Source of the DNA: Eubacteriales bacterium
GTDB taxonomy: Bacteria; Bacillota; Clostridia; Oscillospirales; CAG-272
DNA: 64,000 bases
Direction of reading: 5' to 3'
NCBI GenBank assembly: GCA_045588165.1
Contig: JAZNDP010000015.1
Location: 12,214-76,213, forward strand
Under the pieces are notes generated by a model. That model was given only the letters and a program-made list of their open reading frames with translations, did not search any database and had not been told where the DNA came from. Position numbers and translations under genes: made by a program. Below, piece after piece: positions 4,872 through 19,443 of this stretch (position 1 is the stretch's first letter; each line of letters begins with the position of its first letter).

Positions 4872-7403
4872 ATGAAAAAGATGTTAGTCATTGATGGAAA
4901 CAGCATACTGAACCGTGCGTTTTACGGAATCCGTTTGCTAACCAACAAGGATGGATTGTATACCAACGCAATCTATGGTATGATCACCATGGTTTCTCGT
5001 TATATGGACAGCCTCAAACCCGATTATTGCGCGGTAGCATTCGACCTGAAGGCGCCGACCTTCCGACATAAGATGTACGACGGATATAAGGCAAACCGCA
5101 AGGGAATGCCCGAAGAACTTGCCGTTCAATTGCCCTATGCCAAGGAATGTATGGCGCAGATGGGATTGAACGTTATTTCCTGTGAGGGATATGAGGCGGA
5201 TGATATCTTGGGCACCTTGGCATCCACTATGGGTGGGGATGACGTTCACGTTTACGTCCTGACCGGAGACCGCGATTCCTTACAGCTGATCGGTGAGCAC
5301 GTGTCGGTTCTGCTGGTAAAAACCAAGGAAACCATCGAATTTAATCGCGCTGTATTCCGGGAGCAGTACGGAATTGATCCCGAGCAATTCGTTGAGGTCA
5401 AGGCGCTGATGGGAGACAGCTCGGATAATATCCCCGGTGTTGCGGGAATCGGAGAAAAAACAGCGCTGAAATTGATCGCCGACTATAAAACCGTTTCCGA
5501 TTTGTACGACAGACTGGAGACAGCCTCACTTTCTGACGGAGTTCGCAAAAAGCTGGAGGCGGGAAGAGACATGGCGGTCATGTCACGCGCACTGTCAGAA
5601 ATTTTTGTTGCCGTGCCGATCTCAAGCAAGATTGACGATTATGCATACGTAGGTCCCGATGCTCCTGCTCTGAAAAAGCTCTTCCTCCAACTGGATTTTA
5701 CCGCGTTGATCAAAAAATTTAATCTGGAACAAACGGAGATCCCCGAAGGAGAGAAAAAAAGCGAGGAAAATGTAATATTCCGGTATCAGGTCGCAAAAGA
5801 ATTGTCCGCGCTGGCGGGAGAGGTACTTGCCCTTGATCTGGTTGATGATGCGGTACATTGCTATGACGGGGTGAATCTGTATACGGCTTCCGCTGCTGAT
5901 ATGGATTGGAATGATCTTGCCGCATATATTCAAAATCATTCGGTTGTATGCCATGATTCCAAAAAACTGTATAAGACGTTGATTGAGCGGAATATTTCTA
6001 TTCCGATGTGTTCCTTTGATACGCTGTTGGCGGCTTACGTTTTGGATTCGGGCAGGGGAAATTATACGCTTTCCGAATTGTTCGTCCGATATAAGAACCG
6101 TTCTTTGAACGAGGACATTCCAAGTGCCGTTGCCATATTTGATCTTTTCAAAATCTTGAAGGAAGAAATTGAAAATGGCGGTTTTGGCTCCCTGCTGTAT
6201 GACATTGAGCAACCTCTTGCTTCCGTTCTGGCAGAGATGGAGCTGATCGGATTTAAGATCGACGCGGAGGGAATTCGCGCGTACGGCGAGGAATTGAGCG
6301 AGGCTGCCCAAGCGCTGCAATTGCGAATCTACAGCTATGCGGGGGAGGAATTCAACATTGGTTCTCCCAAGCAGTTGGGGGAGGTTCTCTTTGAGAAGAT
6401 GGGCTTACCTAAATCAAGAAAGACAAAAACCGGTTATTCCACCGACGCGGAAACCCTGCAAAAGCTCTTGCCAAAGCATCCTATCATCGAGGATATTTTA
6501 GATTACCGTCAGGTAACCAAGCTAAAATCCACCTATGCAGACGGGTTGCCCAAGGCGGCAGATGAGCAGGGAAGAGTCCACAGCATTCTCAATCAAACGG
6601 GAACCGCTACGGGACGGCTCTCATCCTCTGAACCGAATTTGCAAAATATACCTGTCCGCACCGAACTTGGCAGACGATTCCGTAAATATTTCACGGCGCA
6701 GAATGAGGAATACGTTCTGATTGACGCGGATTATTCCCAGATCGAGTTGAGACTGTTGGCGCATATCGCGCAAGATGAAGCGATGATCGACGCGTTTCTT
6801 TCGGGAGAGGATGTGCATACGATGACGGCTGCCAAGGTATTTGGCGTGTCACCCGATATGGTTACCTCGGATTTGAGAAAGAAGGCAAAAGCCGTCAACT
6901 TTGGTATTATGTACGGAATCGGAGATTATTCGCTGTCCGAGGATCTTGGGATCTCCAAAGCACAGGCAAAGGAATATATTACGAGCTATTTTGAGAAATT
7001 CCCCCAGATCCGCGCTTATCTGGATCGCGTTCAGGAAGATGCAAAAAAAGACGGATATGTTACCACCTTGTTGGGAAGACGGCGGTATATTCCCGAGCTT
7101 GCATCATCCAATAAAAACGTACAGCATTTTGGGGAACGGGTGGCTATGAACAGCCCCATTCAGGGAACCGCGGCTGATATCATCAAGATCGCGATGATTC
7201 GAACCAATGATTCCTTGCATAAGAGAGGGCTTGATGCCCGTCTGATCATGCAGGTTCACGACGAATTGATTCTGGAATCACATCGAAGCTGTGCGGAGGA
7301 AGCGCGCGCCATTTTGGTGGATTGCATGGAAAATGCAATATCGCTTTCCATTCCGTTGTCCGTGGAAGGAAGCGTTGGCAACACATGGTACGATGCCAAA
7401 TAA
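4872..7403 (+). CDS. polA: DNA polymerase I
   Basis: 843 aa. N-terminal 5'-3' exonuclease (GDSSDNIPGVAGIGEKTA), central 3'-5' exo-like domain, and C-terminal family A polymerase motifs (DYSQIELRLLAH, KAVNFGIMYG, QVHDEL). Confidence 0.97.
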   Translation: MKKMLVIDGNSILNRAFYGIRLLTNKDGLYTNAIYGMITMVSRYMDSLKPDYCAVAFDLKAPTFRHKMYDGYKANRKGMPEELAVQLPYAKECMAQMGLNVISCEGYEADDILGTLASTMGGDDVHVYVLTGDRDSLQLIGEHVSVLLVKTKETIEFNRAVFREQYGIDPEQFVEVKALMGDSSDNIPGVAGIGEKTALKLIADYKTVSDLYDRLETASLSDGVRKKLEAGRDMAVMSRALSEIFVAVPISSKIDDYAYVGPDAPALKKLFLQLDFTALIKKFNLEQTEIPEGEKKSEENVIFRYQVAKELSALAGEVLALDLVDDAVHCYDGVNLYTASAADMDWNDLAAYIQNHSVVCHDSKKLYKTLIERNISIPMCSFDTLLAAYVLDSGRGNYTLSELFVRYKNRSLNEDIPSAVAIFDLFKILKEEIENGGFGSLLYDIEQPLASVLAEMELIGFKIDAEGIRAYGEELSEAAQALQLRIYSYAGEEFNIGSPKQLGEVLFEKMGLPKSRKTKTGYSTDAETLQKLLPKHPIIEDILDYRQVTKLKSTYADGLPKAADEQGRVHSILNQTGTATGRLSSSEPNLQNIPVRTELGRRFRKYFTAQNEEYVLIDADYSQIELRLLAHIAQDEAMIDAFLSGEDVHTMTAAKVFGVSPDMVTSDLRKKAKAVNFGIMYGIGDYSLSEDLGISKAQAKEYITSYFEKFPQIRAYLDRVQEDAKKDGYVTTLLGRRRYIPELASSNKNVQHFGERVAMNSPIQGTAADIIKIAMIRTNDSLHKRGLDARLIMQVHDELILESHRSCAEEARAILVDCMENAISLSIPLSVEGSVGNTWYDAK

Positions 7404-7412
7404 ATAAAATTT

Positions 7413-7466
7413 AACCACAGAAAATAAGTAACATACGCTGTTTCTTGCTTCTGTGGTTATTTTTTG
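7413..7466 (+). terminator. Probable terminator after polA
   Basis: 10-bp stem AACCACAGAA / TTCTGTGGTT with a large loop, followed by ATTTTTTG. Confidence 0.5.
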
Positions 7467-7499: not shown

Positions 7500-7528
7500 T
7501 GGACATTTGAACAACTTTATTGTATAAT
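7500..7528 (+). promoter_or_regulatory. Putative sigma-A promoter of the hydrogenase regulatory genes
   Basis: TGGACA - 17 nt - TATAAT, about 55 nt upstream of the 7584 start codon. Confidence 0.5.
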
Positions 7529-7583: not shown

Positions 7584-7937
7584 ATGCAGATGCGAAAAAT
7601 CGCGGAGTTGTTGGATGCAGATATTCTGTGCGGACATGACTCTCTGGACGGTGTTGTGAAATCCGCATTTGGCTGTGACATGATGAGCGACGTGTTGGCT
7701 TTTGTCAAAAATCAGGCAGTTTTGCTTACAGGGCTTTGTAATCCGCAGGTCGTTCGTACGGCAGAAATGATGGATATGCGATGCATCGTATTCGTTCGCG
7801 GCAAGATTCCTCCTGCGGAGGTAGTTGCGCTGGCAAAGGACGCGGGTATCGTTGTTATGACAACGAAAGAAAGAATGTACGCCGCTTGCGGTAAGCTGTA
7901 TACCCACGGACTTCCCGGAGGAGAAGAGGAATCATGA
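7584..7937 (+). CDS. DRTGG-domain protein (copy 1)
   Basis: 117 aa. Has the CDMMSDVLAF...LLTGL.NPQVVRTAE...FVRGK pattern that I recognise from DRTGG proteins annotated next to [FeFe]-hydrogenase genes. Good RBS (AAGGAG). Confidence 0.65.
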   Translation: MQMRKIAELLDADILCGHDSLDGVVKSAFGCDMMSDVLAFVKNQAVLLTGLCNPQVVRTAEMMDMRCIVFVRGKIPPAEVVALAKDAGIVVMTTKERMYAACGKLYTHGLPGGEEES

Positions 7938-8356
7938 CAGAAAGTGTAAATTTCCACTTTGATATTGACGGGGATAACTTCACGTCGGCGGGAGAAGCCT
8001 CAGTTCGGATCAAAAAGCTGCTCCGTGAGATGGGATTTTTACCCGATGTCATTCGGCGCGTATCGGTTGCCATGTACGAGGGTGAAATCAACATGGTAAT
8101 CCACGCCAACGGCGGGTCCGCGGACGTAAACGTTTATTGCGATCGCATTGAGATTATTCTGAAGGATAATGGTCCCGGTATTTCCGATATCGATCTGGCA
8201 ATGCAGGAAGGATATTCTACAGCGCCCGATACCATTCGTTCTCTTGGATTTGGCGCCGGCATGGGACTTCCGAACATGCAACGGTATACGGATGATATGA
8301 AAATAACGTCAGAGGTAGGCAAGGGAACCACCGTGTTTATGACGGTCAAGGTTTGA
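7934..8356 (+). CDS. SpoIIAB/RsbW-like serine-kinase-type ATPase (GHKL fold)
   Basis: 140 aa. N-box EGEINMVIHA, G1 DNGPGI, G2 GFGAGMGLP. ATGA start/stop overlap with the upstream DRTGG gene. Confidence 0.75.
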   Translation: MTESVNFHFDIDGDNFTSAGEASVRIKKLLREMGFLPDVIRRVSVAMYEGEINMVIHANGGSADVNVYCDRIEIILKDNGPGISDIDLAMQEGYSTAPDTIRSLGFGAGMGLPNMQRYTDDMKITSEVGKGTTVFMTVKV

Positions 8357-8383
8357 CTTGCTTCCCATGAAGAAGAGGTAGCG

Positions 8384-9649
8384 ATGTCTATTTATAAGCA
8401 CTCCGTGACACTTGAGCTATCCAAGTGTAAGGGATGCACCAACTGCATCAAACGCTGTCCTACCGAAGCGATTCGCGTACGGGACGGACACGCGATTATT
8501 AAAGAAGAAAATTGCATTGATTGCGGCGAATGCATCAGACTGTGCCCGTATCAAGCAAAGAAGGCAACCTTCGATAAATTTGAAGATTTTCAAGGGTACC
8601 GATATAAGATCGCCATTCCCGCACCGTCGCTGTACGGGCAGTTCGAGGATCTGGACGACGTGGATTACATCTTGACCGCCTTGTTGAAGTGCGGTTTTGA
8701 TGCTGTTTTTGAGGTTTCCCGCGCGGCGGAATTGATTACAGAATATACCCGCCGATATATGAAGCAGGAAAACCTTCCTATGCCGATCATCAGCTCGGCA
8801 TGTCCCGCAATCGTTCGTTTGATCGCATTGCGATTTCCTTACTTAAAAGAGCATCTGTTACCCTTGATGCCACCGATTGAATATGCGGCGAGAATCGCAA
8901 GAGAAGAAGCGCTGGCAACCCATCCCGAGCTTATGGATGACGATATCTGCGTCTTGTTTCTCTCTCCCTGCCCCGCAAAGATCAGTTACGTAAAGAATCC
9001 CCTCGGCGTGAAGAAAAGCGCCGTTACAGGATCTCTTGCCATCAGCGATTTTTATTTTAAGATCCGAGCGAAACGTAAGGAGATTTCAGATCCACTGCCC
9101 CTATCCCAATCGGGAATCATTGGTTTGAACTGGGCAAGTTCCGGCGGAGAAGCGACGTCTCTGTTGTCGGATAAGCATCTGGCGGCGGATGGAATTGAAA
9201 ACTGCATTCACGTACTGGATGAGATTGAAAACGGTACCCTGCATAACCTGGAATTTGTTGAGCTGAACGCTTGTCCCGGCGGCTGTGTGGGAGGAACCCT
9301 AAATGTGGAAAACCCATTTATTGCCAAGGCGAGATTGCAATCCATGAGAAAATACCTTCCGGTCTCCCGTAATCGCGTTGCGGTAGCGGATGAGATTCCC
9401 AAGAACATTTATTGGACGGAGGATTTGCCCTCTGATTGCTTTAATCAGCTATCCGATGACCGTATCACCGCCATTGCCAAGATGTCTGAGATCGAAGCGA
9501 TTTACAAAGAACTTCCGCATCTGGATTGCGGATCCTGCGGAGCGCCCAATTGTCATGCGTTGGCGGAGGATATCGTAAAGGGTGAGGCGAAAAAGAGTCA
9601 TTGTCTGATTCGACTTCGAGAGCATTTAAAAAAACAGGATCATGATTGA
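8384..9649 (+). CDS. hydS: Putative sensory [FeFe]-hydrogenase, HydS-like (M2e / group D architecture)
   Basis: 421 aa. N-terminal 2x[4Fe-4S] (CKGCTNCIKRCP, CIDCGECIRLCP). H-domain motifs are SSACP, SPCPAK and ELNACPGGCVGG. C-terminal C-x2-C-x4-C-x16-C motif. Confidence 0.8.
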   Translation: MSIYKHSVTLELSKCKGCTNCIKRCPTEAIRVRDGHAIIKEENCIDCGECIRLCPYQAKKATFDKFEDFQGYRYKIAIPAPSLYGQFEDLDDVDYILTALLKCGFDAVFEVSRAAELITEYTRRYMKQENLPMPIISSACPAIVRLIALRFPYLKEHLLPLMPPIEYAARIAREEALATHPELMDDDICVLFLSPCPAKISYVKNPLGVKKSAVTGSLAISDFYFKIRAKRKEISDPLPLSQSGIIGLNWASSGGEATSLLSDKHLAADGIENCIHVLDEIENGTLHNLEFVELNACPGGCVGGTLNVENPFIAKARLQSMRKYLPVSRNRVAVADEIPKNIYWTEDLPSDCFNQLSDDRITAIAKMSEIEAIYKELPHLDCGSCGAPNCHALAEDIVKGEAKKSHCLIRLREHLKKQDHD

Positions 9650-9670
9650 TCCGAGGGGAGGTGTTAACCC

Positions 9671-9994
9671 ATGACAGTAAAACAACTTGCAGAAGCCTTT
9701 GGCTACCGTGTGCTTTGCATGCCCGACGAGGGCAGAGAAGTGGTTGGCGGTTATGCGGGTGATCTTTTGAGCTGGGTCATGGGGCGACTGGAAACGAATA
9801 ACGCATGGGTAACCATTATGTCCAATGTAAATATCGTGGCAGTTGCGACTCTTGCCGATCCTTCCTGTATCATTCTTTCTGAAGGGGTTGTGTTGGAGCA
9901 AGATGTACTGAACCGAGCGATTCAGCAAGGTGTGAACGTACTCTCCACCGATAAAACCACCTTTTCGGTATGTGCCGATCTTGCCACGGTATGA
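9671..9994 (+). CDS. DRTGG-domain protein (copy 2)
   Basis: 107 aa. Layout similar to copy 1 (GDLLSWVM...WVTIMSN.NIVAVA...). Good RBS (GGGGAGG). Confidence 0.6.
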   Translation: MTVKQLAEAFGYRVLCMPDEGREVVGGYAGDLLSWVMGRLETNNAWVTIMSNVNIVAVATLADPSCIILSEGVVLEQDVLNRAIQQGVNVLSTDKTTFSVCADLATV

Positions 9995-10728
9995 TGAATC
10001 GGTATTTTTACGATTTTCATATTCATTCTTGTCTCTCACCTTGCGCGGATGACGATATGACCCCCAATAATATTGCCGGAATGGCGGCAATAAAGGGACT
10101 TCAGATTTTGGCGCTGACCGACCATAATTCCTGCAAAAACTGTCCCGCCTTTTTTGAGGCGTGCCGCAGACAGGGAATCGTTCCAATCGCCGGAATGGAA
10201 TTGACCACCGCCGAGGACATTCATCTGATCTGTCTGTTTGAGGAGCTCGCGCAGGCAATGGCATTTGACAAGGAGATTGCGGGACATATTCTTCCCGTTA
10301 AAAACCGTCCCGATATTTTCGGCAACCAATGGATCTTGGACGAAAATGACGAAATCAAAGGGGAAGAGGAGATCCTGCTGATCTCTGCTACGGATCTTTG
10401 GGTGCGGGAAGCCACTGAGCTTGCCAGATCCTTTGGCGCACACGTTCATCCCGCCCATATTGATCGGGAATCCAATGGAATGATTGCTATTCTGGGAGAT
10501 ATTCCGTCGGAATACGGATTTGTTTTTTATGAATTAAACGATCAATCCAATTTGGAATCCTATCAGAATCGATTTCCATATCTATCATCGGAAAATGTTT
10601 TGGTGTGTTCCGACGCACATCAGCTTTGGACCATCAGCGAGGCAGAGCATTTTATCATGATTGAGGACGAGCCATACAGCTCGGCATTGGTCAGGCACCG
10701 TTTATTTGAGTATTTGAACCGTGACTGA
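9991..10728 (+). CDS. PHP-family metal-dependent phosphoesterase
   Basis: PHP motifs DFHIHS, LTDHN and HPAHIDR. ATG 9991 (ATGA overlap with the DRTGG stop) is preferred over ATG 9970. Confidence 0.8.
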   Translation: MMNRYFYDFHIHSCLSPCADDDMTPNNIAGMAAIKGLQILALTDHNSCKNCPAFFEACRRQGIVPIAGMELTTAEDIHLICLFEELAQAMAFDKEIAGHILPVKNRPDIFGNQWILDENDEIKGEEEILLISATDLWVREATELARSFGAHVHPAHIDRESNGMIAILGDIPSEYGFVFYELNDQSNLESYQNRFPYLSSENVLVCSDAHQLWTISEAEHFIMIEDEPYSSALVRHRLFEYLNRD

Positions 10729-10794
10729 TCGGATTTTCAATGAATTTATTTTACAATAAATAAATTAAAATAAACACGGAGGATTTTTTTCAAC

Positions 10795-11289
10795 ATGAAA
10801 AAGAATTTGACCACAGTTATGTTCCGTGGTACAAAGGCTCAGGAAGAACAGCTGGACGCTGTCATTGAGCAGTACCGCGACACACCGGGTGCGTTGATGC
10901 CTGTACTGCAAAAGGCTCAGGATATTTACGGATATCTGCCTTTGGAGGTTCAGCGTATGATCGCTCTCAAAATGGGAATCTCCATGGAAGAGGTATACGG
11001 TGTATCCACCTTCTATTCCCAGTTTGTTTTGAACCCCAAGGGTGAAATCGCCATTGCGGTTTGTCTTGGAACAGCATGCTATGTAAAGGGAAGCGGAGAA
11101 ATTTTGGACAAGATCACCCAGATTCTCGGACTGCCCTCCGGTTCCACCACGCCTGACGGGAAGTATTCCTTGGAAGCAACCAGATGCATCGGTGCTTGCG
11201 GACTTGCTCCCGTGTTGACGATCAACAATGAGGTGTACGGAAGACTGACTCCCTCCGACATGGACGAAATTCTTGCAAAATACAAATAA
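10795..11289 (+). CDS. hydC: NuoE-like [2Fe-2S] subunit of NAD(P)-linked [FeFe]-hydrogenase (HydC)
   Basis: 164 aa. Thioredoxin-like [2Fe-2S] Cys pattern CLGTAC ... CIGAC. Lies in an operon with NuoF-like and HydA genes. Confidence 0.9.
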   Translation: MKKNLTTVMFRGTKAQEEQLDAVIEQYRDTPGALMPVLQKAQDIYGYLPLEVQRMIALKMGISMEEVYGVSTFYSQFVLNPKGEIAIAVCLGTACYVKGSGEILDKITQILGLPSGSTTPDGKYSLEATRCIGACGLAPVLTINNEVYGRLTPSDMDEILAKYK

Positions 11290-11298
11290 TCAACTCGT

Positions 11299-11847
11299 AT
11301 GAAGGAATTATCTTTAAATATTCTTGACGTAGCAAAGAACTCGGTTGTAGCGGGTGCGTCCTTGATCACGATTTCCTTGGATACCGATGAAAACGGATGG
11401 TTGACACTGAAAATCGTGGACGACGGTTGCGGCATGAGTGAAGAAATCTTGCGTCACGTAACCGATCCGTTTTATACTACACGAACCACACGCAAGGTCG
11501 GTCTTGGTTTGCCGTTACTGAAACTGGCGGCAGAGCAAACCGGAGGATATCTTCGGATGGAATCTTCCACCCAAGAGGGGGAAAGTGGGACGTCCTTGGT
11601 AGCGCAATTCAATACAAAAAGCATTGACTGTATGCCCCTCGGGGACATTATTTCAACTGTTTGCATTCTGATTGCGGGAAGTCCGGATATTGATTTTGAT
11701 TTTTCGGATACTTCCAAGGAAAGATCGGTATCATTGAAAACAAAGGAGCTTCGAGCGGTGCTTGGAGAGGGGATTTCTCTCGCGGAGCCGGAAGTTCAAG
11801 CTTGGATCGGAGAGTATTTGAAGGAGCAATATACTTTAATCGGTTAG
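11299..11847 (+). CDS. Histidine-kinase-like ATPase domain protein without DHp, receiver or sensor domains
   Basis: 182 aa. N-box LNILDVAKNS, G1 DDGCGM, FYTTR, G2 GLGLPL. No phospho-accepting His domain is visible. Confidence 0.75.
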   Translation: MKELSLNILDVAKNSVVAGASLITISLDTDENGWLTLKIVDDGCGMSEEILRHVTDPFYTTRTTRKVGLGLPLLKLAAEQTGGYLRMESSTQEGESGTSLVAQFNTKSIDCMPLGDIISTVCILIAGSPDIDFDFSDTSKERSVSLKTKELRAVLGEGISLAEPEVQAWIGEYLKEQYTLIG

Positions 11848-11881
11848 GATAAATTTTTCAAAATTAGATGGAGGAATCATT

Positions 11882-12256
11882 ATGAAATCTTTGGCGGAGC
11901 TTGCCGCAATCAGAGAAAAAATGCAGAGCAAGGTTGTGATTCGTGAAGGCGCGGCTACAATGAGAGTCGTTGTTGGCATGGCAACCTGCGGAATCGCTGC
12001 GGGAGCCAGACCGGTTCTCAAAGCGTTTGTTGACGGAGTCAACAAAGGTGAACTGACCGATAAGGTCACCATCACCCAGACCGGTTGTATCGGTATTTGT
12101 CAGTATGAGCCCGTAGTAGAAATCTTCGAAGAGGGTAAGGAAAAGGTTACATATGTCAAGCTGGATGCCGAAAAGGCTGCGGAGATTGTTGAAAAACATT
12201 TGAAGGGCGGACAGGTCGTGACCGAGTACACCATCGGCTCCTACAAGCAAAGCTAA
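11882..12256 (+). CDS. Thioredoxin-like ferredoxin-fold small subunit (HydD-like)
   Basis: 124 aa. Motifs MATCGIAAGA and TGCIGICQYEP. Only three Cys in total by my count, so the usual 4-Cys [2Fe-2S] ligand set is incomplete. Confidence 0.65.
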   Translation: MKSLAELAAIREKMQSKVVIREGAATMRVVVGMATCGIAAGARPVLKAFVDGVNKGELTDKVTITQTGCIGICQYEPVVEIFEEGKEKVTYVKLDAEKAAEIVEKHLKGGQVVTEYTIGSYKQS

Positions 12257-12288
12257 GCCTCAATAGAACATAAGAAAGGACAAAGAAT

Positions 12289-14085
12289 ATGTTTAGATCA
12301 CATGTTTTGATTTGTGGCGGTACCGGTTGTACGTCTTCCAACAGTCTCAAGATTCAGGAAGAAATGAACAAGGAGCTCCTTGCCGCAGGTCTTGAAAATG
12401 AGGTCAAAGTCGTCCTGACCGGATGCTTTGGTCTGTGCGCTCTGGGACCGATCATGATCGTATATCCCGAGGGAACCTTCTACAGCAACGTAAAACCCGA
12501 GGATGCTCGCGAGATCGTTCAGGAACATCTGCTGAAGGGTCGTCCTGTGGAAAGACTCGTTTACCACGAGACAACGAGTGAGGACACGCATCATGCGACC
12601 TCTCTCTCCGAAACCACCTTCTATAAGAAGCAGAAGAGAATTGCTCTGTGGAATTGCGGTGTGATCAATCCCGAAAATATTGATGAGTATATCGCAATGG
12701 ACGGTTATCGTGCGTTGGGTAAGGTCCTGACCGAGATGACTCCCGACGACGTAATCCAGACCATTCTGGATTCCGGACTCCGCGGAAGAGGCGGCGGCGG
12801 ATTCCCCACGGGACTGAAGTGGAAGTTTGCTTCTGGCAACCGCGGAAACGTAAAGAAATACGTCGCTTGTAACGCCGATGAGGGTGACCCCGGCGCGTTC
12901 ATGGACCGTTCCATTCTGGAGGGTGACCCCCACGCGGTTCTGGAGGCTATGGCGATCGCAGGTTACGCCATTGGCGCTGACGAAGGTTATATTTACGTTC
13001 GCGCGGAGTATCCCATTGCAATTCACCGTCTGGAGATTGCCATCAAGCAGGCTCGTGAATACGGTCTGTTGGGTAACGATATTTTTGGAACAGGCTTCAA
13101 TTTTGATATTCAGCTTCGCTTCGGCGCCGGCGCGTTCGTATGCGGTGAGGAAACCGCGCTGATGACCTCCATCGAGGGTAATCGCGGTGAGCCCCGTCCC
13201 CGTCCTCCGTTCCCCGCAGTAAAGGGTCTGTTCGGACAGCCTACGGTTCTGAACAACGTAGAGACCTACGCAAATATTTGCCAGATCATTCTGAACGGTC
13301 CCGAATGGTTTGCTTCCATGGGTACTGAAAAGTCCAAGGGAACCAAGGTGTTTGCTCTCGGCGGTAAGATCACGAATACGGGTCTTGTTGAAGTTCCTAT
13401 GGGAACAACCCTTCGTGAGGTTATTGAGGAGATCGGTGGCGGTATTCCAAATGGCAAGAAGTTTAAAGCGGCGCAGACCGGCGGTCCTTCCGGCGGATGT
13501 ATCCCCGCATCTCTGATTGATACTCCCATTGACTACGACAACCTGATCGCCATCGGCTCTATGATGGGATCCGGCGGTCTGATCGTTATGGACGAGAACA
13601 CCTGCATGGTAGACCTTGCTCGTTTCTTCCTTGATTTCACCGTGGACGAGTCCTGCGGTAAATGTACGCCTTGCCGTGTCGGAACAAGAAGATTGCTTGA
13701 GATCCTGGATAAGATCATCGCAGGAAACGGTGAGCTTGAAGATCTGGATAAGCTGGAGGAGCTCTCCAATTACATCAAGAGCGCGTCTCTTTGCGGTCTT
13801 GGTCAGACGGCGCCCAACCCCGTTCTTTCCACTCTCCGTTACTTCAGAGACGAGTACATAGCACATATCGTGGACAAGAAGTGTCCCGCAGGCGTATGTA
13901 AGAGCTTGCTGCAGTACAAGATCGATCCCGATAAGTGTAAGGGCTGTACGCTGTGCGCGAGAAAGTGTCCTGTGGGCGCTATCAGCGGTACCGTTAAGAA
14001 TCCTCACGTGATTGATACCGCAAAGTGTATCAAGTGCGGCGCTTGTATGGACAGCTGTAAGTTCAACGCAATTTATAAGGAATAA
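12289..14085 (+). CDS. hydB: NuoF-like FMN/NAD(P)H-binding subunit of electron-bifurcating-type hydrogenase (HydB)
   Basis: 598 aa. N-terminal [2Fe-2S] (CGGTGC...CFGLC), GRGGGGFPTGLKW loop, CGKCTPCR cluster, and a C-terminal 2x[4Fe-4S] domain (CKGCTLCARKCP, CIKCGACMDSC). Confidence 0.93.
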   Translation: MFRSHVLICGGTGCTSSNSLKIQEEMNKELLAAGLENEVKVVLTGCFGLCALGPIMIVYPEGTFYSNVKPEDAREIVQEHLLKGRPVERLVYHETTSEDTHHATSLSETTFYKKQKRIALWNCGVINPENIDEYIAMDGYRALGKVLTEMTPDDVIQTILDSGLRGRGGGGFPTGLKWKFASGNRGNVKKYVACNADEGDPGAFMDRSILEGDPHAVLEAMAIAGYAIGADEGYIYVRAEYPIAIHRLEIAIKQAREYGLLGNDIFGTGFNFDIQLRFGAGAFVCGEETALMTSIEGNRGEPRPRPPFPAVKGLFGQPTVLNNVETYANICQIILNGPEWFASMGTEKSKGTKVFALGGKITNTGLVEVPMGTTLREVIEEIGGGIPNGKKFKAAQTGGPSGGCIPASLIDTPIDYDNLIAIGSMMGSGGLIVMDENTCMVDLARFFLDFTVDESCGKCTPCRVGTRRLLEILDKIIAGNGELEDLDKLEELSNYIKSASLCGLGQTAPNPVLSTLRYFRDEYIAHIVDKKCPAGVCKSLLQYKIDPDKCKGCTLCARKCPVGAISGTVKNPHVIDTAKCIKCGACMDSCKFNAIYKE

Positions 14086-14097
14086 GAAAGGAGAACA

Positions 14098-15846
14098 GTG
14101 GACATGGAAACTATTAACGTTAAAATTAACGGCGTAGCCTATGCCGTTCCAAAGGGATCCACGGTTCTTGAGGCTGCAAGAGCGGCTAAAATAGATATCC
14201 CCACCCTTTGTTATCTGAAGGATATCAACGAGATCGGCGCTTGCCGTCTGTGTCTGGTTGAGGTATCCGAGGGAGGAAGACCCTTCCGTATGGTTACCGC
14301 GTGTGTATATCCCGTAACCGAGGGAATGGAGATCCTGACCAACACCCCCAAGATCAACAAATCCAGAAAGACCAATCTGGAGCTGTTGCTCTCCAACCAC
14401 GACAGAAAGTGTCTTTCTTGCGTTCGCAGCACAACCTGTGAGCTTCAGAAGCTCTCTCTGGAGTATGGTGTTGACGAAACGAAGTTCTCCGGCACGAAGA
14501 ATGAGTATAAGATTGACAAATCTTCTCCCATCATTCGCGATAACAACAAGTGTATCCTTTGCCGTCGTTGCGTTGCCGCTTGTAAGAATATGCAGGGAAT
14601 TGGTGTAATCGGCGCAAACGACAGAGGATTTGACACCCACATCGGATCGATCTTTGAGATGAGTCTGTCTGAGACCAGCTGTATCAACTGCGGTCTGTGT
14701 ATCGTAGCATGCCCCGTAGGCGCTCTGTATGAGAGAGATGATACCGATAAGATTCTGGATGCGATTGCAGATCCCAACAAGCACGTCTTGATTTGTACCG
14801 CTCCTTCTGTACGTGCGCAGATCGGTGAATGCTTCGGCTTCGAGCCCGGCACGGATTGCGAGGGTAAGATGGTTGCCGCGCTGAAGCGTCTGGGCTTTGA
14901 CGGTGTTTACGACATGAATCTGACGGCTGACCTGACGATCATGGAGGAGGCTACCGAGTTCCTCGGAAGAGTAAAGAACGGCGGCGTATTGCCCATGATT
15001 ACCTCTTGCTCTCCCGGTTGGATCAAATACTGTGAGCACTACTATCCCGAGTTTACCGAAAATCTTTCCACCTGTAAGTCTCCTCAGCAGATGTTTGGCG
15101 CAATTGCCAAGACCTATTATGCGGAGAAGATGGGCTGGAATCCCGAGGATATCTTCTTTGTTTCCGCAATTCCTTGTACCGCAAAGAAATTTGAGGTCGG
15201 CAGACCCGGACAGTCTGCGGCAGGTGTTCCTGACGTTGACGTTGCCGTTACGACCCGTGAGCTTGGCAGAATGATTGCCAAGGCAGGTATTGATTTCAAA
15301 TCTCTGGCTGATGAAGCATTTGATGATCCCTTTGCGTTCGGTAGTGGTGCTGGCGCGATCTTCGGTGCTACCGGCGGTGTTATGGAGGCAGCTCTGCGTA
15401 CCGCTGCGGAGGTAATTGAGAACAAGCCTCTGGAGAAGCTGGACTTTACCGAGGTTCGTGGTATTGAGGGCGTAAAGACCGCATCTTACAAGCTTGGTGA
15501 TATCACTCTGAACGTAGCGGTTGCTTCCGGTACTGCTAACGCGAAGAAGGTTCTCGAGGCAGTGAAGGCGGGTGAAATGAACGTTCAATTCATCGAGATC
15601 ATGGCATGTCCCGGCGGTTGTGTCAACGGCGGCGGACAGCCTATTCAACCCGCACTCGTAAGAGAAACCGTGGATCTGAAGACGGTCAGAGCGGCAGTTC
15701 TTTATAATGATGACGTGAACTGTGACATCCGTAAGTCTCACGAGAACTCCGGTGTAAAGAAGCTTTACGACGAGTTTCTTGGCGAGCCGAATAGCCACAA
15801 GGCACATGAGATTTTGCATACCCACTACGTAAAGCGCGGTCTGTAA
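14098..15846 (+). CDS. hydA: [FeFe]-hydrogenase catalytic subunit (HydA)
   Basis: 582 aa. N-terminal [2Fe-2S], H-x3-C-x2-C-x5-C cluster and 2x[4Fe-4S] domain. H-cluster motifs are L1 TSCSPGW, L2 IPCTAKKFE and L3 EIMACPGGCVNGGGQP. Start is GTG 14098 or ATG 14104. Confidence 0.93.
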   Translation: MDMETINVKINGVAYAVPKGSTVLEAARAAKIDIPTLCYLKDINEIGACRLCLVEVSEGGRPFRMVTACVYPVTEGMEILTNTPKINKSRKTNLELLLSNHDRKCLSCVRSTTCELQKLSLEYGVDETKFSGTKNEYKIDKSSPIIRDNNKCILCRRCVAACKNMQGIGVIGANDRGFDTHIGSIFEMSLSETSCINCGLCIVACPVGALYERDDTDKILDAIADPNKHVLICTAPSVRAQIGECFGFEPGTDCEGKMVAALKRLGFDGVYDMNLTADLTIMEEATEFLGRVKNGGVLPMITSCSPGWIKYCEHYYPEFTENLSTCKSPQQMFGAIAKTYYAEKMGWNPEDIFFVSAIPCTAKKFEVGRPGQSAAGVPDVDVAVTTRELGRMIAKAGIDFKSLADEAFDDPFAFGSGAGAIFGATGGVMEAALRTAAEVIENKPLEKLDFTEVRGIEGVKTASYKLGDITLNVAVASGTANAKKVLEAVKAGEMNVQFIEIMACPGGCVNGGGQPIQPALVRETVDLKTVRAAVLYNDDVNCDIRKSHENSGVKKLYDEFLGEPNSHKAHEILHTHYVKRGL

Positions 15847-15853
15847 AAGTGCG

Positions 15854-15884
15854 AAAGCCGTATGGGAAACCATACGGCTTTTTG
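15854..15884 (+). terminator. Rho-independent terminator of the hyd operon
   Basis: 12-bp stem AAAGCCGTATGG / CCATACGGCTTT, GAAA loop, then a T-run. Confidence 0.85.
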
Positions 15885-15916
15885 CTTCGATTGTATAGAA
15901 AGAAAAGGGAAATGAT

Positions 15917-16999
15917 ATGCATTTTATTACTCCTATTAACGGAACGATGATTCATCTGACCGATGAAAAAATTGTCAAGGGGCAAAATGTCGTCCACTGT
16001 GTCATCGATGCACCTGAATATTACAAGATCGAGATCAACGGAACACCGTGCATCTACCGTGCCGGACGTTGGTATTTGAGTGTTCCGCTTTTGGATAATA
16101 CCCTTGTTTTACAGGCGAAAAGCCTGACTACGGGAGAATGCATAGAAAGTACGGTTTATCGGCTATATACTCCCCGTAAAATATACCGTGTGTCTATTGA
16201 CGATGGAATATGGTTTTTACAGGATATCGCAAAAAATCAAGATCGGTACAAGAGTATTTTTGAAAATCCGTATTTAATGCTTTTGAGGCGGTTACATGAG
16301 GAATACGGAACAAAATTTCATATAAATATTTACAATGAATGTCCCGAGCACGGTGGTTTTCAGCTTTCTATGCTTTCCGACCGATTCAAGGACGAATGGC
16401 TCTCCGTGAACGATTGGGTGACACTGCATTTCCACGCGAAGGCGGATTCCCCCGGATATCCATATGCCACAGCCGACAGAAAAACCACCTATACGGAATG
16501 TAAGCAGGTCATGGATCAGATTGAACGCTTTGCGGGATACAGGGGCGCTGTTACAACCTTACACTTTGCGGAAACAACCGAAGAAGGTATCAGAGGCTTG
16601 TACGATTGCGGAGTAAGAGCGCTTCTTGGTGACTTTTCGCAAAGCAATGCAGGGAATATCCGGTTGTGTTATCAATCCAGCAGAGAGGAGTTTGATACGG
16701 TCCGTCGCTTTGGATTTTGGAAAAACCCAAGAACGGAAATGATCATGTTTTGTTGCGACACCGTATTGAACTGCGGATCACTTGATCAGATGAAGCAAGA
16801 ACTGGAGTGGTTTTCCTATCAGTACCCTGACCGTAGCTTTATGGATATTTTGATCCACGAGCAGTATTTTTACGAGGATTATCATCATTATCTTCCCGAT
16901 TATGAGAAGAGACTCAGAACAGGAATCGAATGGTGTATCCAACACGGATACACACCCGGTCTTGTCAAAGAGCTATTGGACGATCATTTGAGGAAATGA
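15917..16999 (+). CDS. Hypothetical protein (360 aa), function unknown
   Basis: Has its own RBS and is bounded by terminators. Only a weak NodB-like SIDDG element was noticed, which is not enough for an assignment. Confidence 0.4.
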   Translation: MHFITPINGTMIHLTDEKIVKGQNVVHCVIDAPEYYKIEINGTPCIYRAGRWYLSVPLLDNTLVLQAKSLTTGECIESTVYRLYTPRKIYRVSIDDGIWFLQDIAKNQDRYKSIFENPYLMLLRRLHEEYGTKFHINIYNECPEHGGFQLSMLSDRFKDEWLSVNDWVTLHFHAKADSPGYPYATADRKTTYTECKQVMDQIERFAGYRGAVTTLHFAETTEEGIRGLYDCGVRALLGDFSQSNAGNIRLCYQSSREEFDTVRRFGFWKNPRTEMIMFCCDTVLNCGSLDQMKQELEWFSYQYPDRSFMDILIHEQYFYEDYHHYLPDYEKRLRTGIEWCIQHGYTPGLVKELLDDHLRK

Positions 17000-17011
17000 T
17001 GCGACAGCTTT

Positions 17012-17044
17012 CTCCGTGCGGACATATGCCGCACGGAGTTTTTT
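17012..17044 (+). terminator. Rho-independent terminator
   Basis: 10-bp stem CTCCGTGCGG / CCGCACGGAG with a 7-nt loop, then TTTTTT. Confidence 0.8.
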
Positions 17045-17065
17045 ATAAAAGATTTAAGAAAAGAA

Positions 17066-17094
17066 TTGACAAGACTTTTTTGTTATGATATAAT
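17066..17094 (+). promoter_or_regulatory. Consensus sigma-A promoter
   Basis: TTGACA - 17 nt - TATAAT (both hexamers perfect), 40 nt upstream of ATG 17135. Confidence 0.65.
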
Positions 17095-17134
17095 TATATA
17101 AAGATAATTTTGTTTCATAGGACGAGGTGTTATA

Positions 17135-17794
17135 ATGAATCAAAGTAAGTTAAAACTTGTGTTTGGAATCGCCGGAATCGTTCTCGCAGTTGTTGCGATT
17201 GCACTCTTTTTCGTTGGTATTTTTGCAATTGATTTCGGGAATGCCGCAGTGGTAAAGATCATGGTCTTCATCATTTCTTTTCTTTGCCTTGCCTTGGCGG
17301 CAGAGTTGTTCTATTTGCTTTGGATCGAGAATGACAGCGCCCCCAACTACTTCTTGTATAATAGTCAAACCAAGAGAAACATTCCCGCCAATAAGCTGAC
17401 GATCCAAATCATTCACAGCAAAATGAATCGGTATTTGTCCGGCTTCGCTCCCAGCGAGGGAAAGCTTTGGACCGATAAGATTCTGGACAACCCTTACTTG
17501 GATATTGAGGACAAGTTCAAGCCCGCCGTCGCGTATAAGCTTCTGTACGATCTGGCAGAAAAGGACACCGAGCAAGCGTGGAAATGCTTTGAGCAGGCAT
17601 CTGAGGAGACGGTGGAATTCCTTTGCTCCGCATTGGAGATGAATTACGATACGGATATGGCAAGAACCCTGCGCCAGATGAAGGGATCTAATCCCTTGAA
17701 TTTGAAGCTGGTGAGAGACTATATTGTGAAAAACAGAAATTATCTGAAGGGCAAGTTGTGTCGGTATATTTACGATAACATTCAATTGTTCTGA
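17135..17794 (+). CDS. Membrane-anchored hypothetical protein (2 N-terminal TM helices plus soluble C-terminal domain)
   Basis: 219 aa. Hydrophobic stretches at about residues 9-30 and 37-62. I recognised no motif. Confidence 0.5.
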   Translation: MNQSKLKLVFGIAGIVLAVVAIALFFVGIFAIDFGNAAVVKIMVFIISFLCLALAAELFYLLWIENDSAPNYFLYNSQTKRNIPANKLTIQIIHSKMNRYLSGFAPSEGKLWTDKILDNPYLDIEDKFKPAVAYKLLYDLAEKDTEQAWKCFEQASEETVEFLCSALEMNYDTDMARTLRQMKGSNPLNLKLVRDYIVKNRNYLKGKLCRYIYDNIQLF

Positions 17795-17819
17795 TTTCAT
17801 TCTGTTTTGTGTCGTTTGC

Positions 17820-17858
17820 AAATACCATGCCACAAAACGGCATGGTATTTGTTCTTTT
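17820..17858 (+). terminator. Probable terminator
   Basis: 12-bp stem AAATACCATGCC / GGCATGGTATTT with a 7-nt loop and an interrupted T-run. Confidence 0.6.
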
Positions 17859-17887
17859 ATATCAAATGTTCGGAAAAGGAGTTTTTT

Positions 17888-18607
17888 ATGTTCTGTATCA
17901 AAATTGCGGATATACGTATTGCAATCGATAACAAATATAACTACGTAAAGCTCCTTTGTAATGATTACACCGTACCGGAAAGCGAAGGGGTGGATATGAC
18001 CGTACGGGTCTCCGAGGAAGAAATCCTTCGTGAAATGGAAGCCGCAGAGGTGAAAATAACACCTGACTATGCGGAGGGAGTTTGCGTATACCGATCCATC
18101 TGCAGACGACTGCCAATTGATTTTCAATCGTTTTTGATGCATTGCGCCGTGATTGAATACGAGGGACAGGGATATGCCTTCGCCGCCAAAAGCGGTACGG
18201 GAAAATCCACGCATATCGCCCTGTGGCAAAAAAGGTTTGGTGATTCTGTAAAAATCATTAACGGAGATAAGCCGATTATGCGGTTTGCGAATCATCATCT
18301 CCTCGCCTACGGAACACCTTGGTGCGGCAAGGAAGGCTATAACATCAACACTTCGGTTCCATTGACAGCAATATGCTTTTTGGAAAGATCGCAGACAAAT
18401 ACCATTCGAAGAATCAAAGCCGATGAAGCGGTGATGAGAATTTTTCATCAAATCCTGTCTCCCGAGGATATGGAAACGGTAGACGCGTTATTTCCGTTGC
18501 TGGATCGGATGCTTCGACAGATCCCTTGCTACGTATTAGGATGTAATATTTCCGAGGAAGCCGCAGAGGTTGCGTATCAGGGAATGAATCTGAAAAATAA
18601 TTTTTAA
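17888..18607 (+). CDS. P-loop protein with HPr-kinase-like Walker A (putative HprK-related kinase)
   Basis: 239 aa from ATG 17888 (AAAGGAG RBS); the longer 17807 ORF would run through the terminator. Central AKSGTGKST, then INGDKP and GTPWCGKEG. Confidence 0.5.
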   Translation: MFCIKIADIRIAIDNKYNYVKLLCNDYTVPESEGVDMTVRVSEEEILREMEAAEVKITPDYAEGVCVYRSICRRLPIDFQSFLMHCAVIEYEGQGYAFAAKSGTGKSTHIALWQKRFGDSVKIINGDKPIMRFANHHLLAYGTPWCGKEGYNINTSVPLTAICFLERSQTNTIRRIKADEAVMRIFHQILSPEDMETVDALFPLLDRMLRQIPCYVLGCNISEEAAEVAYQGMNLKNNF

Positions 18608-18626
18608 TCACAGAAAGAGAATCAAT

Positions 18627-18890
18627 ATGAAAATCAAAAAGGGCTTTGTAGTCAGAGAGCTTGCCGGTGAGTGCGTCGTCGTGGCACTTGGTGAGGCAAG
18701 TAAGGTCTTTAACGGAATCATTAAGCTGAACGCGACGGGAAAGATCCTTTGGGAAATGCTCGCCCGCGGCTGCGAAAAGGAAGAAGCGGTTGATGCGATA
18801 TTGAAGGATTACGAGATTGACCGTGAAACGGTAGAAGCGGATTTTGACCTCTTTGTAGAAACCTTAAAGGGAGCGAATATTCTTGAATAA
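18627..18890 (+). CDS. PqqD-family protein (RRE-type peptide chaperone fold)
   Basis: 87 aa. Typical PqqD layout: beta-strand start (FVVRELAGECVVV), LNATGKILWEML, and an acidic C-terminal helix region (ETVEADFDLFVETL). Confidence 0.75.
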   Translation: MKIKKGFVVRELAGECVVVALGEASKVFNGIIKLNATGKILWEMLARGCEKEEAVDAILKDYEIDRETVEADFDLFVETLKGANILE

Positions 18891-19365
18891 CCGAGAAATA
18901 AATTTGACGGATGCGATTGCGGTCATTGAGGAGGTCCTGGAGGGGGGCGGGGAATTCCGTCTTTACCCGAAGGGAACCAGTATGCTACCGCTTCTGCGGC
19001 AGGGCAAGGATTCTGTTGTTTTAAGCAAAAGACCTGATTCCGCAACGCCCCTAAAAAAGCACGATATTGCTTTTTACCGACGCAAAAACGGTCAGTTTGT
19101 CCTTCACCGTGTTATGAAAACATGTCGGGACGGCAGCTTTACGATGTGCGGAGATAATCAGACCGTCCCGGAGACGGGAATCCTTCCCGATCAGATCATA
19201 GGATATGTTTGCAGAATATATAAAGGGGAAAAAGAGCTCTCTTTCCATTCTGTAAGATATAAAATATACGTATTTTTTTGGACCTGTATGCCATATCGGC
19301 GTTGTATCAGATTTTTCAGAAGAGGCTTTCGCTTTATAAAACGTTGCCTTCTGGGAAATAAATAA
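18883..19365 (+). CDS. S24/S26-family serine peptidase (signal-peptidase/LexA-like fold)
   Basis: 160 aa. Nucleophile motif KGTSMLP, second catalytic motif FVLHRVMK, and a basic C-terminal tail. The TTG start overlaps the PqqD stop by 8 nt. Confidence 0.65.
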   Translation: MNNREINLTDAIAVIEEVLEGGGEFRLYPKGTSMLPLLRQGKDSVVLSKRPDSATPLKKHDIAFYRRKNGQFVLHRVMKTCRDGSFTMCGDNQTVPETGILPDQIIGYVCRIYKGEKELSFHSVRYKIYVFFWTCMPYRRCIRFFRRGFRFIKRCLLGNK

Positions 19366-19388
19366 GAATGAATTTCTGCTTCGATACC

Positions 19389-19428: not shown

Positions 19429-19443
19429 GTAGGAGAGGAAAAG

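Follow-up and report, generated by a model that had tools for sequence, protein, structure and literature searches.

Which partner proteins take up the signal of a group D [FeFe]-hydrogenase, and how does this signal reach its target? Land et al. (2020) noticed a kinase-like ATPase encoded beside TamHydS of Thermoanaerobacter mathranii and asked how a signal could be passed on without a PAS domain (PMC8163306), and TamHydS is the sole characterized member of group D, with no known partner (PMC13104023). The same question is raised by a locus in a 64,000-nucleotide stretch of DNA from an Eubacteriales bacterium (assembly GCA_045588165.1, contig JAZNDP010000015.1, positions 12,214 to 76,213 of the forward strand), called the window in the following. 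Here, six accessory genes encoding two DRTGG proteins, two GHKL-type ATPases, the hydrogenase-like protein HydS and a PHP phosphoesterase share one operon with the genes of a HydABCD hydrogenase. The answer put forward is that these six genes encode one conserved H2/redox-responsive switch, which resembles partner switching and has no DNA-binding output of its own. The probability we assign to this reading is about 40%, and it is therefore presented as a tentative one.

Organization and Conservation of the Cassette

According to the listing of open reading frames (ORFs), the operon comprises ten genes on the + strand (7584-15846), which overlap or are separated by short gaps. Pfam assignments were judged against the gathering thresholds and NCBIfam assignments against the equivalog cutoffs. 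In the order of transcription, the genes are:

7584..7937, + strand: DRTGG-1, 117 aa, a single DRTGG domain (Pfam PF07085, 32.9 bits against a cutoff of 25.2, E = 6e-8)
7934..8356, + strand: ATPase1, 140 aa, HATPase_c / HATPase_c_2, a GHKL ATPase of the SpoIIAB/RsbW/RsbT class
8384..9649, + strand: HydS, 421 aa, two Fer4 domains, Fe_hyd_lg_C (96.5 bits) and a C-terminal PF04060 FeS domain
9671..9994, + strand: DRTGG-2, 107 aa (Pfam DRTGG, 29.9 bits against a cutoff of 25.2, E = 5e-7)
9991..10728 (longest ORF from 9970), + strand: PHP, 245 aa (Pfam PHP, 47.3 bits)
10795..11289, + strand: HydC, 164 aa, a NuoE-like [2Fe-2S] subunit (PF01257, E = 1e-49)
11299..11847, + strand: ATPase2, 182 aa (HATPase_c, 54.8 bits, E = 1.5e-14)
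11882..12256, + strand: HydD, 124 aa, a thioredoxin-like [2Fe-2S] protein (PF01257, E = 3e-6; NF041612, E = 3e-13)
12289..14085, + strand: HydB, 598 aa, a NuoF-like flavoprotein (Complex1_51K, NADH_4Fe-4S)
14098..15846, + strand: HydA, 582 aa, the catalytic [FeFe]-hydrogenase subunit (NF040763, 854 bits, cutoff 765; Fe_hyd_lg_C, E = 4e-94, together with Fe_hyd_SSU)

The original prediction, which was made from the sequence letters alone, had described the six accessory genes as a signaling cassette without DNA-binding or two-component parts that is wrapped around a HydABC hydrogenase. All six ORFs were found on the + strand where they had been placed, every sequence motif quoted from them is present, and the Pfam matches of all six proteins pass the gathering thresholds. 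In line with the prediction, Pfam and NCBIfam searches of the operon proteins found no DNA-binding, HisKA or receiver domain.

Related loci were anchored on HydS in genomes (33 loci) and on ATPase1 in metagenomes (80 loci), and their ORFs were labeled by phmmer against the ten window proteins; the counts given here refer to loci with enough contig reach. DRTGG-1 lies directly upstream of ATPase1 in 27/28 genome and 65/68 metagenome loci, and HydS follows ATPase1 directly in 30/30 and 45/46 loci, respectively. DRTGG-2 is present in 29/29 genome and 42/43 metagenome loci, PHP in 27/27 and 33/37. The genes for DRTGG-1, ATPase1, HydS and DRTGG-2 form a near-invariant core, found in this order in at least 95% of the testable loci, and the arrangement of the cassette goes far beyond chance. 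The predicted linkage to HydABC was also borne out, with HydA encoded in 14/15 genome and 15/19 metagenome loci with full flanks.

Of 115 related loci that were compared, about 60 retain the gene order. The arrangement of the window, with hydC after PHP, is found in 35 loci, while in 15 loci hydC lies ahead of DRTGG-1 and the cassette is located wholly inside the hyd operon. Seven loci have the five genes from DRTGG-1 to PHP divergent from hydC-ATPase2-hydD-hydB-hydA, and in three the six cassette genes are contiguous in front of hydC-hydD-hydB-hydA, that is, hydC comes after ATPase2. The four-gene core also occurs amid unrelated neighbors (L117, L120, L121 and, with less upstream flank, L123), a five-gene cassette stands alone in L021, and L129 is a stand-alone operon of all six genes that lacks HydABC within 8 kb, the host of which is inferred to be Bacteroidota-like from a nearby gene with a type IX secretion system (T9SS) sorting domain. 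The picture of a cassette wrapped around the hydrogenase could thus not be upheld, as other lineages have the six genes side by side or on their own, and hydC is the gene that moves.

Many of the cassette genes overlap their neighbors, namely DRTGG1-ATPase1 in 63/98, DRTGG2-PHP in 50/72, HydS-DRTGG2 in 32/70 and PHP-ATPase2 in 9/17 pairs; no overlap was counted for hydD-hydB and hydB-hydA. In the window, the stop codon of DRTGG-1 overlaps the start of ATPase1. PHP most likely starts at 9991, overlapping the DRTGG-2 stop by 4 nt (ATGA), because the identical database protein P0424 has 245 aa and an overlap of 4 nt is the commonest one (36/72 loci). DRTGG-2, PHP and ATPase2 travel with the core as a second arm, of which PHP and ATPase2 are dispensable: both are missing from L043 and L117, which keep the core.

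HydS, ATPase1 and the DRTGG Proteins

No PAS domain was found in HydS by Pfam. The H-cluster cysteines C140, C196, C297 and C301 and the lysine K199 are kept in 77-78 of 78 sequences, the cysteines of the C-terminal cluster (C382, C385, C390, C407) in 78/78, and an alanine (A139, 75/78 sequences) stands where the proton-relay cysteine (C299 in CpI) would be. For TamHydS, S249, E252, D265 and E289 were described as group D-specific residues of a putative proton path (PMC10407848). When mapped by motif rather than by alignment with the TamHydS sequence, their counterparts in the window HydS are S253, E256, D269 and E293; 32 orthologues all carry G254, G255 and E256. As in other group D loci, HydS is encoded upstream of an A1 TR(M3)-type HydABC(D), here in the same operon. 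These features place HydS among the group D (M2e) [FeFe]-hydrogenases of the sensor type; its H-cluster site is intact, and its role in sensing is putative. TamHydS displays low turnover or sensor-like kinetics together with CO tolerance, and the sensor role of group D was likewise called putative (PMC8163306); H2 reduces an N-terminal cluster of TamHydS and leaves the C-terminal cluster unreduced (PMC13104023). Full-length comparison of the window HydS with that of a Thermovenabulum genome, which has the same type of operon, gave 45% identity. More than 8000 database clusters match it at E <= 1e-20, and the best 120, which are 75-100% identical, are labeled as Clostridia, Ruminococcaceae or Oscillospiraceae metagenome-assembled genomes (MAGs), mostly from herbivore gut.

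The best NCBIfam match of ATPase1 is SpoIIAB (TIGR01925, E = 3e-17), although its 62.6 bits are under the equivalog cutoff of 135, and RsbW models gave 25-32 bits against cutoffs of 145-155. Its nearest solved structures are SpoIIAB (1til, 1th8; E = 7e-15), followed by RsbW. In 150 representatives, E49, N53, D78-x-G80-x-G82 and G105-F-G-A-G109, which make up the E-x-x-x-N, DxGxG and Gly-rich lid motifs of the Bergerat fold, are conserved to at least 90%; the conserved motif residues of this protein, and those of ATPase2 described below, are taken by us to be ATP-binding on the basis of the fold.

A search with ATPase1 against 1.84 billion cluster representatives yielded 2248 matches, and fusions were counted among the best 150 of these. 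In 33 of the best 150, a HydS-like protein bears ATPase1 as its N-terminal part; about 12 residues link the ATPase to the first ferredoxin motif, and all N-terminal, H-cluster and C-terminal cysteines are retained in these fusions. In a further type of fusion, a CBS pair precedes ATPase1 (30 of the best 150). DRTGG1::ATPase1 fusions were found in at least seven cluster representatives, one of which is an annotated 267-aa protein of Thermovenabulum (L047). Since DRTGG-1, ATPase1 and HydS are adjacent almost everywhere, are encoded by overlapping or abutting genes and are fused pairwise elsewhere, they are likely to form one physical unit of direct partners.

Several loci carry such fusions. L040 and L042 contain DRTGG, ATPase1::HydS, DRTGG, PHP, ATPase2, HydC, HydD, HydB and HydA, with an NtrC-type two-component pair in front. 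L036, from Candidatus Hydrogenedentes, encodes a receiver protein, DRTGG, ATPase1::HydS, DRTGG, PHP and ATPase2, and this cassette is divergent from a HydCBA operon whose last product is a HydS::HisKA::HATPase protein. Proteins of this kind, 685-710 aa long with Fer4, Fe_hyd_lg_C and FeS domains joined to HisKA and HATPase_c, are encoded at L036:1-1568 (- strand) and L040:18259-19641. In both loci, a hydrogenase-like sensor fused to a histidine-kinase transmitter adjoins HydABC and shares the locus with a cassette of the group D type. The CBS::ATPase1 variants occur in DRTGG-CBS::ATPase1-HydS cassettes in L043 and L128. The cassette of L043 (7646-16169) consists of DRTGG, CBS-CBS::ATPase1, a 506-aa HydS and DRTGG, with a HydC/HydB(GltD-fused)/HydA operon on one side and the complete rnfCDGEAB operon on the other. 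A CBS::ATPase of a Chlamydiae MAG (L045) lies beside recG with no HydS and was set aside as an unrelated paralogue context. The apparent fusions ATPase2::HydD (L107) and DRTGG2::PHP (L102) were rejected as well, as they result from a frameshift or a stop-less run in low-quality contigs.

The two DRTGG proteins are paralogues (25% identity over the full length, E = 9e-12), in which D32, S35 and T49 are the sole non-initiator residues that are invariant in both across several lineages. Their profile matches the DRTGG structures 2ioj and 3l2b/3l31 and the N-domain of HPr kinase (1ko7), not STAS. When aligned by eye with the Pfam consensus, both proteins appear to have other residues in place of the DR and TGG motifs that give the family its name.

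Transcription Signals, Flanking Genes and a Possible Remote Regulon

The following features were identified around the operon:

4872-7403: polA, the ORF directly upstream of the operon
7413..7466, + strand: intrinsic terminator of polA, stem AACCACAGAA ... TTCTGTGGTT followed by a T-run, read from the sequence
7500..7528, + strand: sigma-70-type promoter of the operon, TGGACA, a 17-nt spacer and TATAAT, matching 11 of 12 consensus positions
15854..15887, + strand: intrinsic terminator ending the operon, AAAGCCGTATGG-GAAA-CCATACGGCTTT with a T-run behind it, 8 nt past the hydA stop

The polA terminator is predicted to shield the operon from read-through; the terminator behind hydA was read from the sequence and was not listed by the automatic scan. 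When the regions upstream of 14 related loci were compared, the only conserved blocks were TAT(G/A)GACA, a 17-nt spacer, a TATAAT-type -10 element and an A-rich tract, and the -10 hexamer is exactly TATAAT in 13 of the 14. An operator-like conserved block was not seen in these 14 regions. Rex was considered as a general control element and rejected: the window contains three Rex-box matches at <=2 mismatches versus 3.8 expected by chance, and only 3/92 regions upstream of the cassette contain a match at <=1 mismatch. Taken together, the absent operator and the rarity of Rex boxes provide weak and indirect support for the view that the signal is not mainly used to switch the promoter of the operon itself, which is probably transcribed constitutively.

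No Rfam RNA element was found in the operon. Upstream, it is flanked by genes for 1-deoxy-D-xylulose 5-phosphate (DXP) synthase, a MatE-type transporter and polA. For the four consecutive + strand ORFs directly past the hyd terminator (15917-20103; 360, 219, 266 and 219 aa), Pfam gave no match at E <= 1e-4; a P-loop-like SGTGKST motif is present in the third (17807-18607), and histidine-biosynthesis genes follow. Pfam detected no regulator domain in the immediate flanks, downstream up to 25818.

Elsewhere in the window, the GC skew turns from positive to negative at about 28000-30000, where the cumulative skew peaks, and the long ORFs of the ORF list, judged by eye, shift from mostly + to mostly - strand at about 28.9 kb. 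A replication terminus or the boundary of a large inversion would be expected to show such a pattern. A lone tRNA-Val(GAC) is located at 58225-58301.

The relatives of ATPase1 bring up an alternative that retains the same sensor core. ATPase1 would act as an antagonist that binds or frees a sigma factor, Rex or another regulator depending on the state of HydS, a DRTGG protein would be the anti-anti-factor, and the target would be a transcriptional regulon elsewhere that includes hydrogenases and adhE. Several observations are consistent with such an output. The closest solved relatives of ATPase1, SpoIIAB and RsbW, are anti-sigma factors, and five cassettes (L117, L120, L121, L021 and L129) lie far from HydABC. 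NtrC-type two-component systems or receiver-only proteins flank the cassette in L036, L040 and L042, and Rex is encoded directly upstream of it in L047 and L128. In T. saccharolyticum, deletion of the PAS-type sensor gene hfsB alters adhE transcript levels (PMC5707799). On the other hand, neither the operon nor any Pfam-labeled related locus contains a STAS or sigma-factor gene, the operon and its immediate flanks lack a regulator within the range given above, the adjacency of Rex is occasional and its boxes are rare, and most loci have hydC and ATPase2 interspersed among the structural genes. A remote regulon as the output of the cassette is regarded as unlikely. The Rex-type repressor genes themselves (Put_DNA-bind_N and CoA_binding domains) are located at L047:7372-8004 and L128:1196-1843. 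The stop of the one in Thermovenabulum (L047) shares 4 nt with the cassette start; the window operon has no adjoining Rex gene.

PHP, ATPase2 and the HydABCD Genes

Comparison of 34 PHP sequences, which come from several lineages, showed no change in the metal-ligand motifs (HxH, DH, E, H, H, DxH), and the invariant residues D15, H17, H19, D51, H52, E77, H85, H163, D215 and H217 (numbering from 9970) presumably bind metals, as in other proteins of this fold. A cysteine, C25 (10042-10044), is invariant in 34/34 sequences within an equally invariant LSPC motif six residues past H19, at a position where other PHP enzymes carry a His or Asp ligand of the third metal. C25 could be a redox-sensitive or iron-preferring site. 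The AlphaFold2 model of the protein (pLDDT 91, pTM 0.90) and its profile are closest to Endonuclease Q, phosphatases of 3′-phosphoadenosine 5′-phosphate (pAp; 3e0f/2yb1), TM0559, RNase AM and the PHP domains of DNA polymerase III. The protein phosphatases CpsB/YwqE were absent from the profile matches to the Protein Data Bank (PDB; E <= 0.01) and from the first 50 Foldseek matches.

ATPase2 begins at the N-box helix and contains no HisKA or dimerization and histidine phosphotransfer (DHp) domain, and no receiver is encoded in the operon. D10, N14, D41-x-G-x-G45, G68 and G70 are invariant across lineages. By sequence, the protein is nearest to the catalytic and ATP-binding (CA) domains of histidine kinases (KinB, 1.7e-15; KinB/ZraS, E = 1e-15 to 1e-14). 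Its AlphaFold2 model (pLDDT 86.8, pTM 0.83) is compact with two subdomains, the C-terminal one of about 75 residues. Over the whole length, the best Foldseek matches of the model are the ATPase modules of MutL/PMS2/MLH1 and TopoVI-B (E ~1e-7, TMq 0.5-0.6); the MutL/PMS2 matches cover 177-208 columns (TMq 0.45-0.60), the matches to histidine-kinase CA domains only about 100. The C-terminal subdomain is far smaller than a GHL transducer domain. Direct comparison of ATPase1 and ATPase2 revealed no relationship (E = 1.2). The original prediction had seen two potential writers and one potential eraser in the cassette, a view that is not supported in this form, as the two ATPases are unrelated, ATPase2 lacks a DHp domain and has a MutL-like model, and the nearest solved relatives of PHP are not protein phosphatases.

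ATPase2 directly follows PHP in L036, L040, L042 and L129. Caldanaerobacter subterraneus has the order hydC-tte0891-hydD-hydB-hydA, and Tte0891 is not a subunit of the purified (HydABCD)2 complex (PMC4694547). ATPase2 of the window is predicted to be part of the cassette and not of the HydABC enzyme, because in other lineages all six genes form a contiguous block or a unit of their own; this agrees with the absence of Tte0891 from that complex. As for the enzyme, HydB contains a 2Fe-2S_thioredx domain at residues 4-79 and Fer4 (2x[4Fe-4S]) at residues 543-595, an architecture (N-terminal [2Fe-2S], C-terminal 2x[4Fe-4S]) that we take to be of the bifurcating type. HydA falls into the A-type multimeric class, and by its domain composition HydABC is predicted to be of the electron-bifurcating type.

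The spacer between PHP and hydC (10729-10794) is AT-rich and, with 66 nt, the largest gap of the operon; across 31 loci its median length is 110 nt. An internal promoter or a site of mRNA processing could lie in it and split the expression of the cassette from that of the enzyme.

The fold neighbors of PHP and ATPase2 allow a second alternative to be formulated, in which this arm acts on a nucleotide signal (pAp, diadenosine polyphosphates (ApnA) or similar, sensed by DRTGG or CBS domains) or in hyd mRNA processing, and in which the control by H2 is post-transcriptional. The best matches of PHP, with CpsB/YwqE outside the top 50 folds, the whole-length fit of ATPase2 to MutL/PMS2/TopoVI-B and the overlap of both genes where they adjoin would be in accordance with this, as would the PHP-hydC spacer being the largest intergenic gap. 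In family II pyrophosphatases, CBS-DRTGG-CBS forms an insert that is regulated by adenine nucleotides, so that the DRTGG profile matches to 3l2b/3l31 and the CBS pairs on ATPase1, which include the cassette contexts L043 and L128, count in the same direction. Yet fold neighbors do not fix a substrate, and PHP enzymes include protein phosphatases. Moreover, no nucleic-acid-binding domain or RNA family was detected in the operon, and the arm is missing from some cassettes that bear the core (L043, L117). A nucleotide- or RNA-directed second arm is considered improbable.

It is very improbable that the cassette is a non-signaling assembly, repair or regulatory-subunit set for HydABCD, with GHKL clamps and HydS as scaffold or low-activity hydrogenase: the embedding of its genes in the structural operon, the movement of hydC among them, the MutL/Hsp90-class fold of ATPase2 and the retention of tte0891 in a synthetic operon that yields active enzyme in E. 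coli (PMC4694547) would suit such a role, but cassettes exist without HydABC nearby, two loci (L034, L035) with a longer, distantly related HydS (27-28% identical) have HydC, HydB and HydA nearby and no cassette, TamHydS shows sensor-like kinetics and CO tolerance (PMC8163306), and SpoIIAB-class ATPases and CBS fusions are typical signaling parts.

Proposed Mechanism

Proceeding from the parts list, its conservation, the fusions and the catalytic-motif residues, all of which are observed, we infer every step of the following signal flow for the partner-switching-like reading. Slow oxidation of H2 by HydS would reduce its N-terminal [4Fe-4S] domain, and this reduction would affect ATPase1, either in its ATP-dependent activity or in its choice of partner; in the fusions, ATPase1 is tethered to the N-terminus of HydS. 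ATPase1 might then phosphorylate or sequester the DRTGG proteins, which would fill the place that STAS proteins have in SpoIIAB/RsbW switching, with the invariant Asp-x-x-Ser and Thr as candidate site. PHP, bound to DRTGG-2, would reset the state, and ATPase2, a kinase-less GHKL module that is always located beside PHP or hydC/hydD, may relay it to HydABCD. The net outcome would be a fast post-translational tuning of the bifurcating hydrogenase to the H2 pressure.

Several observations weigh against this proposal. The sensor role of group D HydS is putative (PMC8163306), and a 2024 survey lists the group as functionally undefined (PMC11216029). ATPase1 stays well under the SpoIIAB equivalog cutoff and has no STAS partner. 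The conservation of Ser and Thr in the DRTGG proteins may reflect nothing more than fold or ligand residues of this family. In the ATPase1::HydS fusions, Gln replaces K199 in 27 of the 31 proteins aligned there (alignment set of fusion proteins P0144-P0270); K199 of the window is equated by us with the H-cluster Lys of CpI that contacts the distal-iron cyanide. The Gln-bearing fusion proteins may have no di-iron site, only its [4Fe-4S] part, or a modified site. The nearest relatives of PHP are nucleases and nucleotidases, and the model of ATPase2 resembles a MutL-type clamp. Finally, four- to six-gene cassettes occur without HydABC within 7-10 kb (L117, L120, L121, L021, L129), which means that the target need not be the neighboring enzyme.

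A more specific version of the partner-switching-like reading is advanced as a doubtful one: the cassette could represent a new class in which an H2 sensor derived from an [FeFe]-hydrogenase is hard-wired, as a complex or a fusion, to a SpoIIAB-type ATPase, DRTGG replaces STAS, a Cys-containing PHP replaces PP2C, and a kinase-less GHKL module delivers the state to the electron-bifurcating hydrogenase.

Relation to Known Systems and Biological Meaning

The type of locus has been cataloged since 2010-2012. Published group D loci (TamHydS, Cthe_0335, TTE0887, Athe_1292) have the same HydS architecture and signature residues, with HydS upstream of an A1 TR(M3) HydABC(D) and next to a "histidine kinase-like ATPase" (PMC8163306, PMC3561251, PMC3608648). 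Nothing essential differs, and the window is a further instance from an uncultured gut/rumen lineage of Clostridia. The original prediction had named the same gene order for Thermoanaerobacter-, Caldicellulosiruptor- and Clostridium thermocellum-type genomes, which is supported by the locus tags in Table 6 of PMC3561251 and by PMC4694547. According to that table, the M2e gene lies five genes ahead of the first listed structural gene, e.g., Cthe_0335 versus Cthe_0340-0342, and the window HydS likewise lies five genes ahead of hydD. The published descriptions mention only "a kinase" and, in T. mathranii, an AraC regulator; the DRTGG pair, PHP, the fusions and the alternative architectures are not mentioned. 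Full-text searches found no literature linking HydS or a hydrogenase to DRTGG, PHP, anti-sigma or partner-switching partners, and searches by locus tag returned catalog mentions only. Two further claims of the prediction therefore stand: only HydS has been studied, in isolation, with a study from 2026 still calling for the identification of interaction partners (PMC13104023), and no mechanistic description of the signaling logic was found in the literature. The cluster itself would be no surprise to a hydrogenase specialist; what is added here are the fusions, the six-gene module with its variants and the revised views of PHP and ATPase2.

Group C (M2f) systems with HydS-PAS, as in Thermotoga maritima, in Ruminococcus albus (with a Ser/Thr kinase) and in T. 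saccharolyticum (hfsABCD), also have a low-activity sensor beside a bifurcating HydABC and kinase-type neighbors, and were proposed to match fermentation to the H2 pressure (PMC5707799). In contrast to them, the window HydS has no PAS domain, and its partners are DRTGG, a SpoIIAB-like ATPase and PHP instead of a PAS-coupled kinase. With SpoIIAB-SpoIIAA-SpoIIE, RsbW-RsbV-RsbU and RsbT/stressosome modules, the cassette has in common a small dimer-type GHKL ATPase resembling a Ser kinase, small single-domain partner proteins and a metal-dependent phosphoesterase. STAS, PP2C and a sigma factor are lacking, however, with DRTGG and PHP in those slots, and the putative sensor is of the Fe-S/H-cluster kind, either fused to the ATPase or encoded beside it. 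A comparable logic, i.e., a slow hydrogenase that senses H2 and is bound to a kinase-type transmitter, is summarized in PMC5707799 for the [NiFe] system HoxBC-HoxJ-HoxA of Cupriavidus necator, but the sensors are not homologous, and HoxJ is a true histidine kinase with HoxA as regulator, neither of which is found in the window operon.

The individual parts have relatives in other settings as well. The N-domain of HPr kinase and family II pyrophosphatases, the latter in their CBS-DRTGG-CBS insert, share the DRTGG fold, and CBS pairs are found on ATPase1 in related cassettes, although the DRTGG domains of the window are free-standing with 107-117 aa. ATPase2 shares the Bergerat fold with MutL/PMS2 GHL modules (whole-length fold match, E = 1e-7, TMq 0.54-0.60) and histidine-kinase CA domains, and the N, G1 and G2 boxes with the latter. 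Unlike MutL/PMS2 or kinases, it has only 182 aa and neither a DHp/His domain nor a DNA-repair C-terminal domain.

The partial pressure of H2 sets the output of fermenters, i.e., acetate and H2 versus more reduced products, and H2 feeds the methanogens of rumen and gut, from which the relatives of the window locus come. For group D signaling, candidates can now be named, with the SpoIIAB-like ATPase and DRTGG-1 as direct partners of HydS and DRTGG-2, PHP and ATPase2 as a second arm. Together with the candidate residues, these named partners make the question of how group D enzymes signal directly testable, and cultured carriers of this type of locus have been reported (C. thermocellum, Caldicellulosiruptor and Thermoanaerobacter). 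If the more specific version of the reading, the new class with a hard-wired sensor, is true, H2 would feed back on fermentative H2 production through post-translational control in at least two bacterial phyla and possibly in a third.

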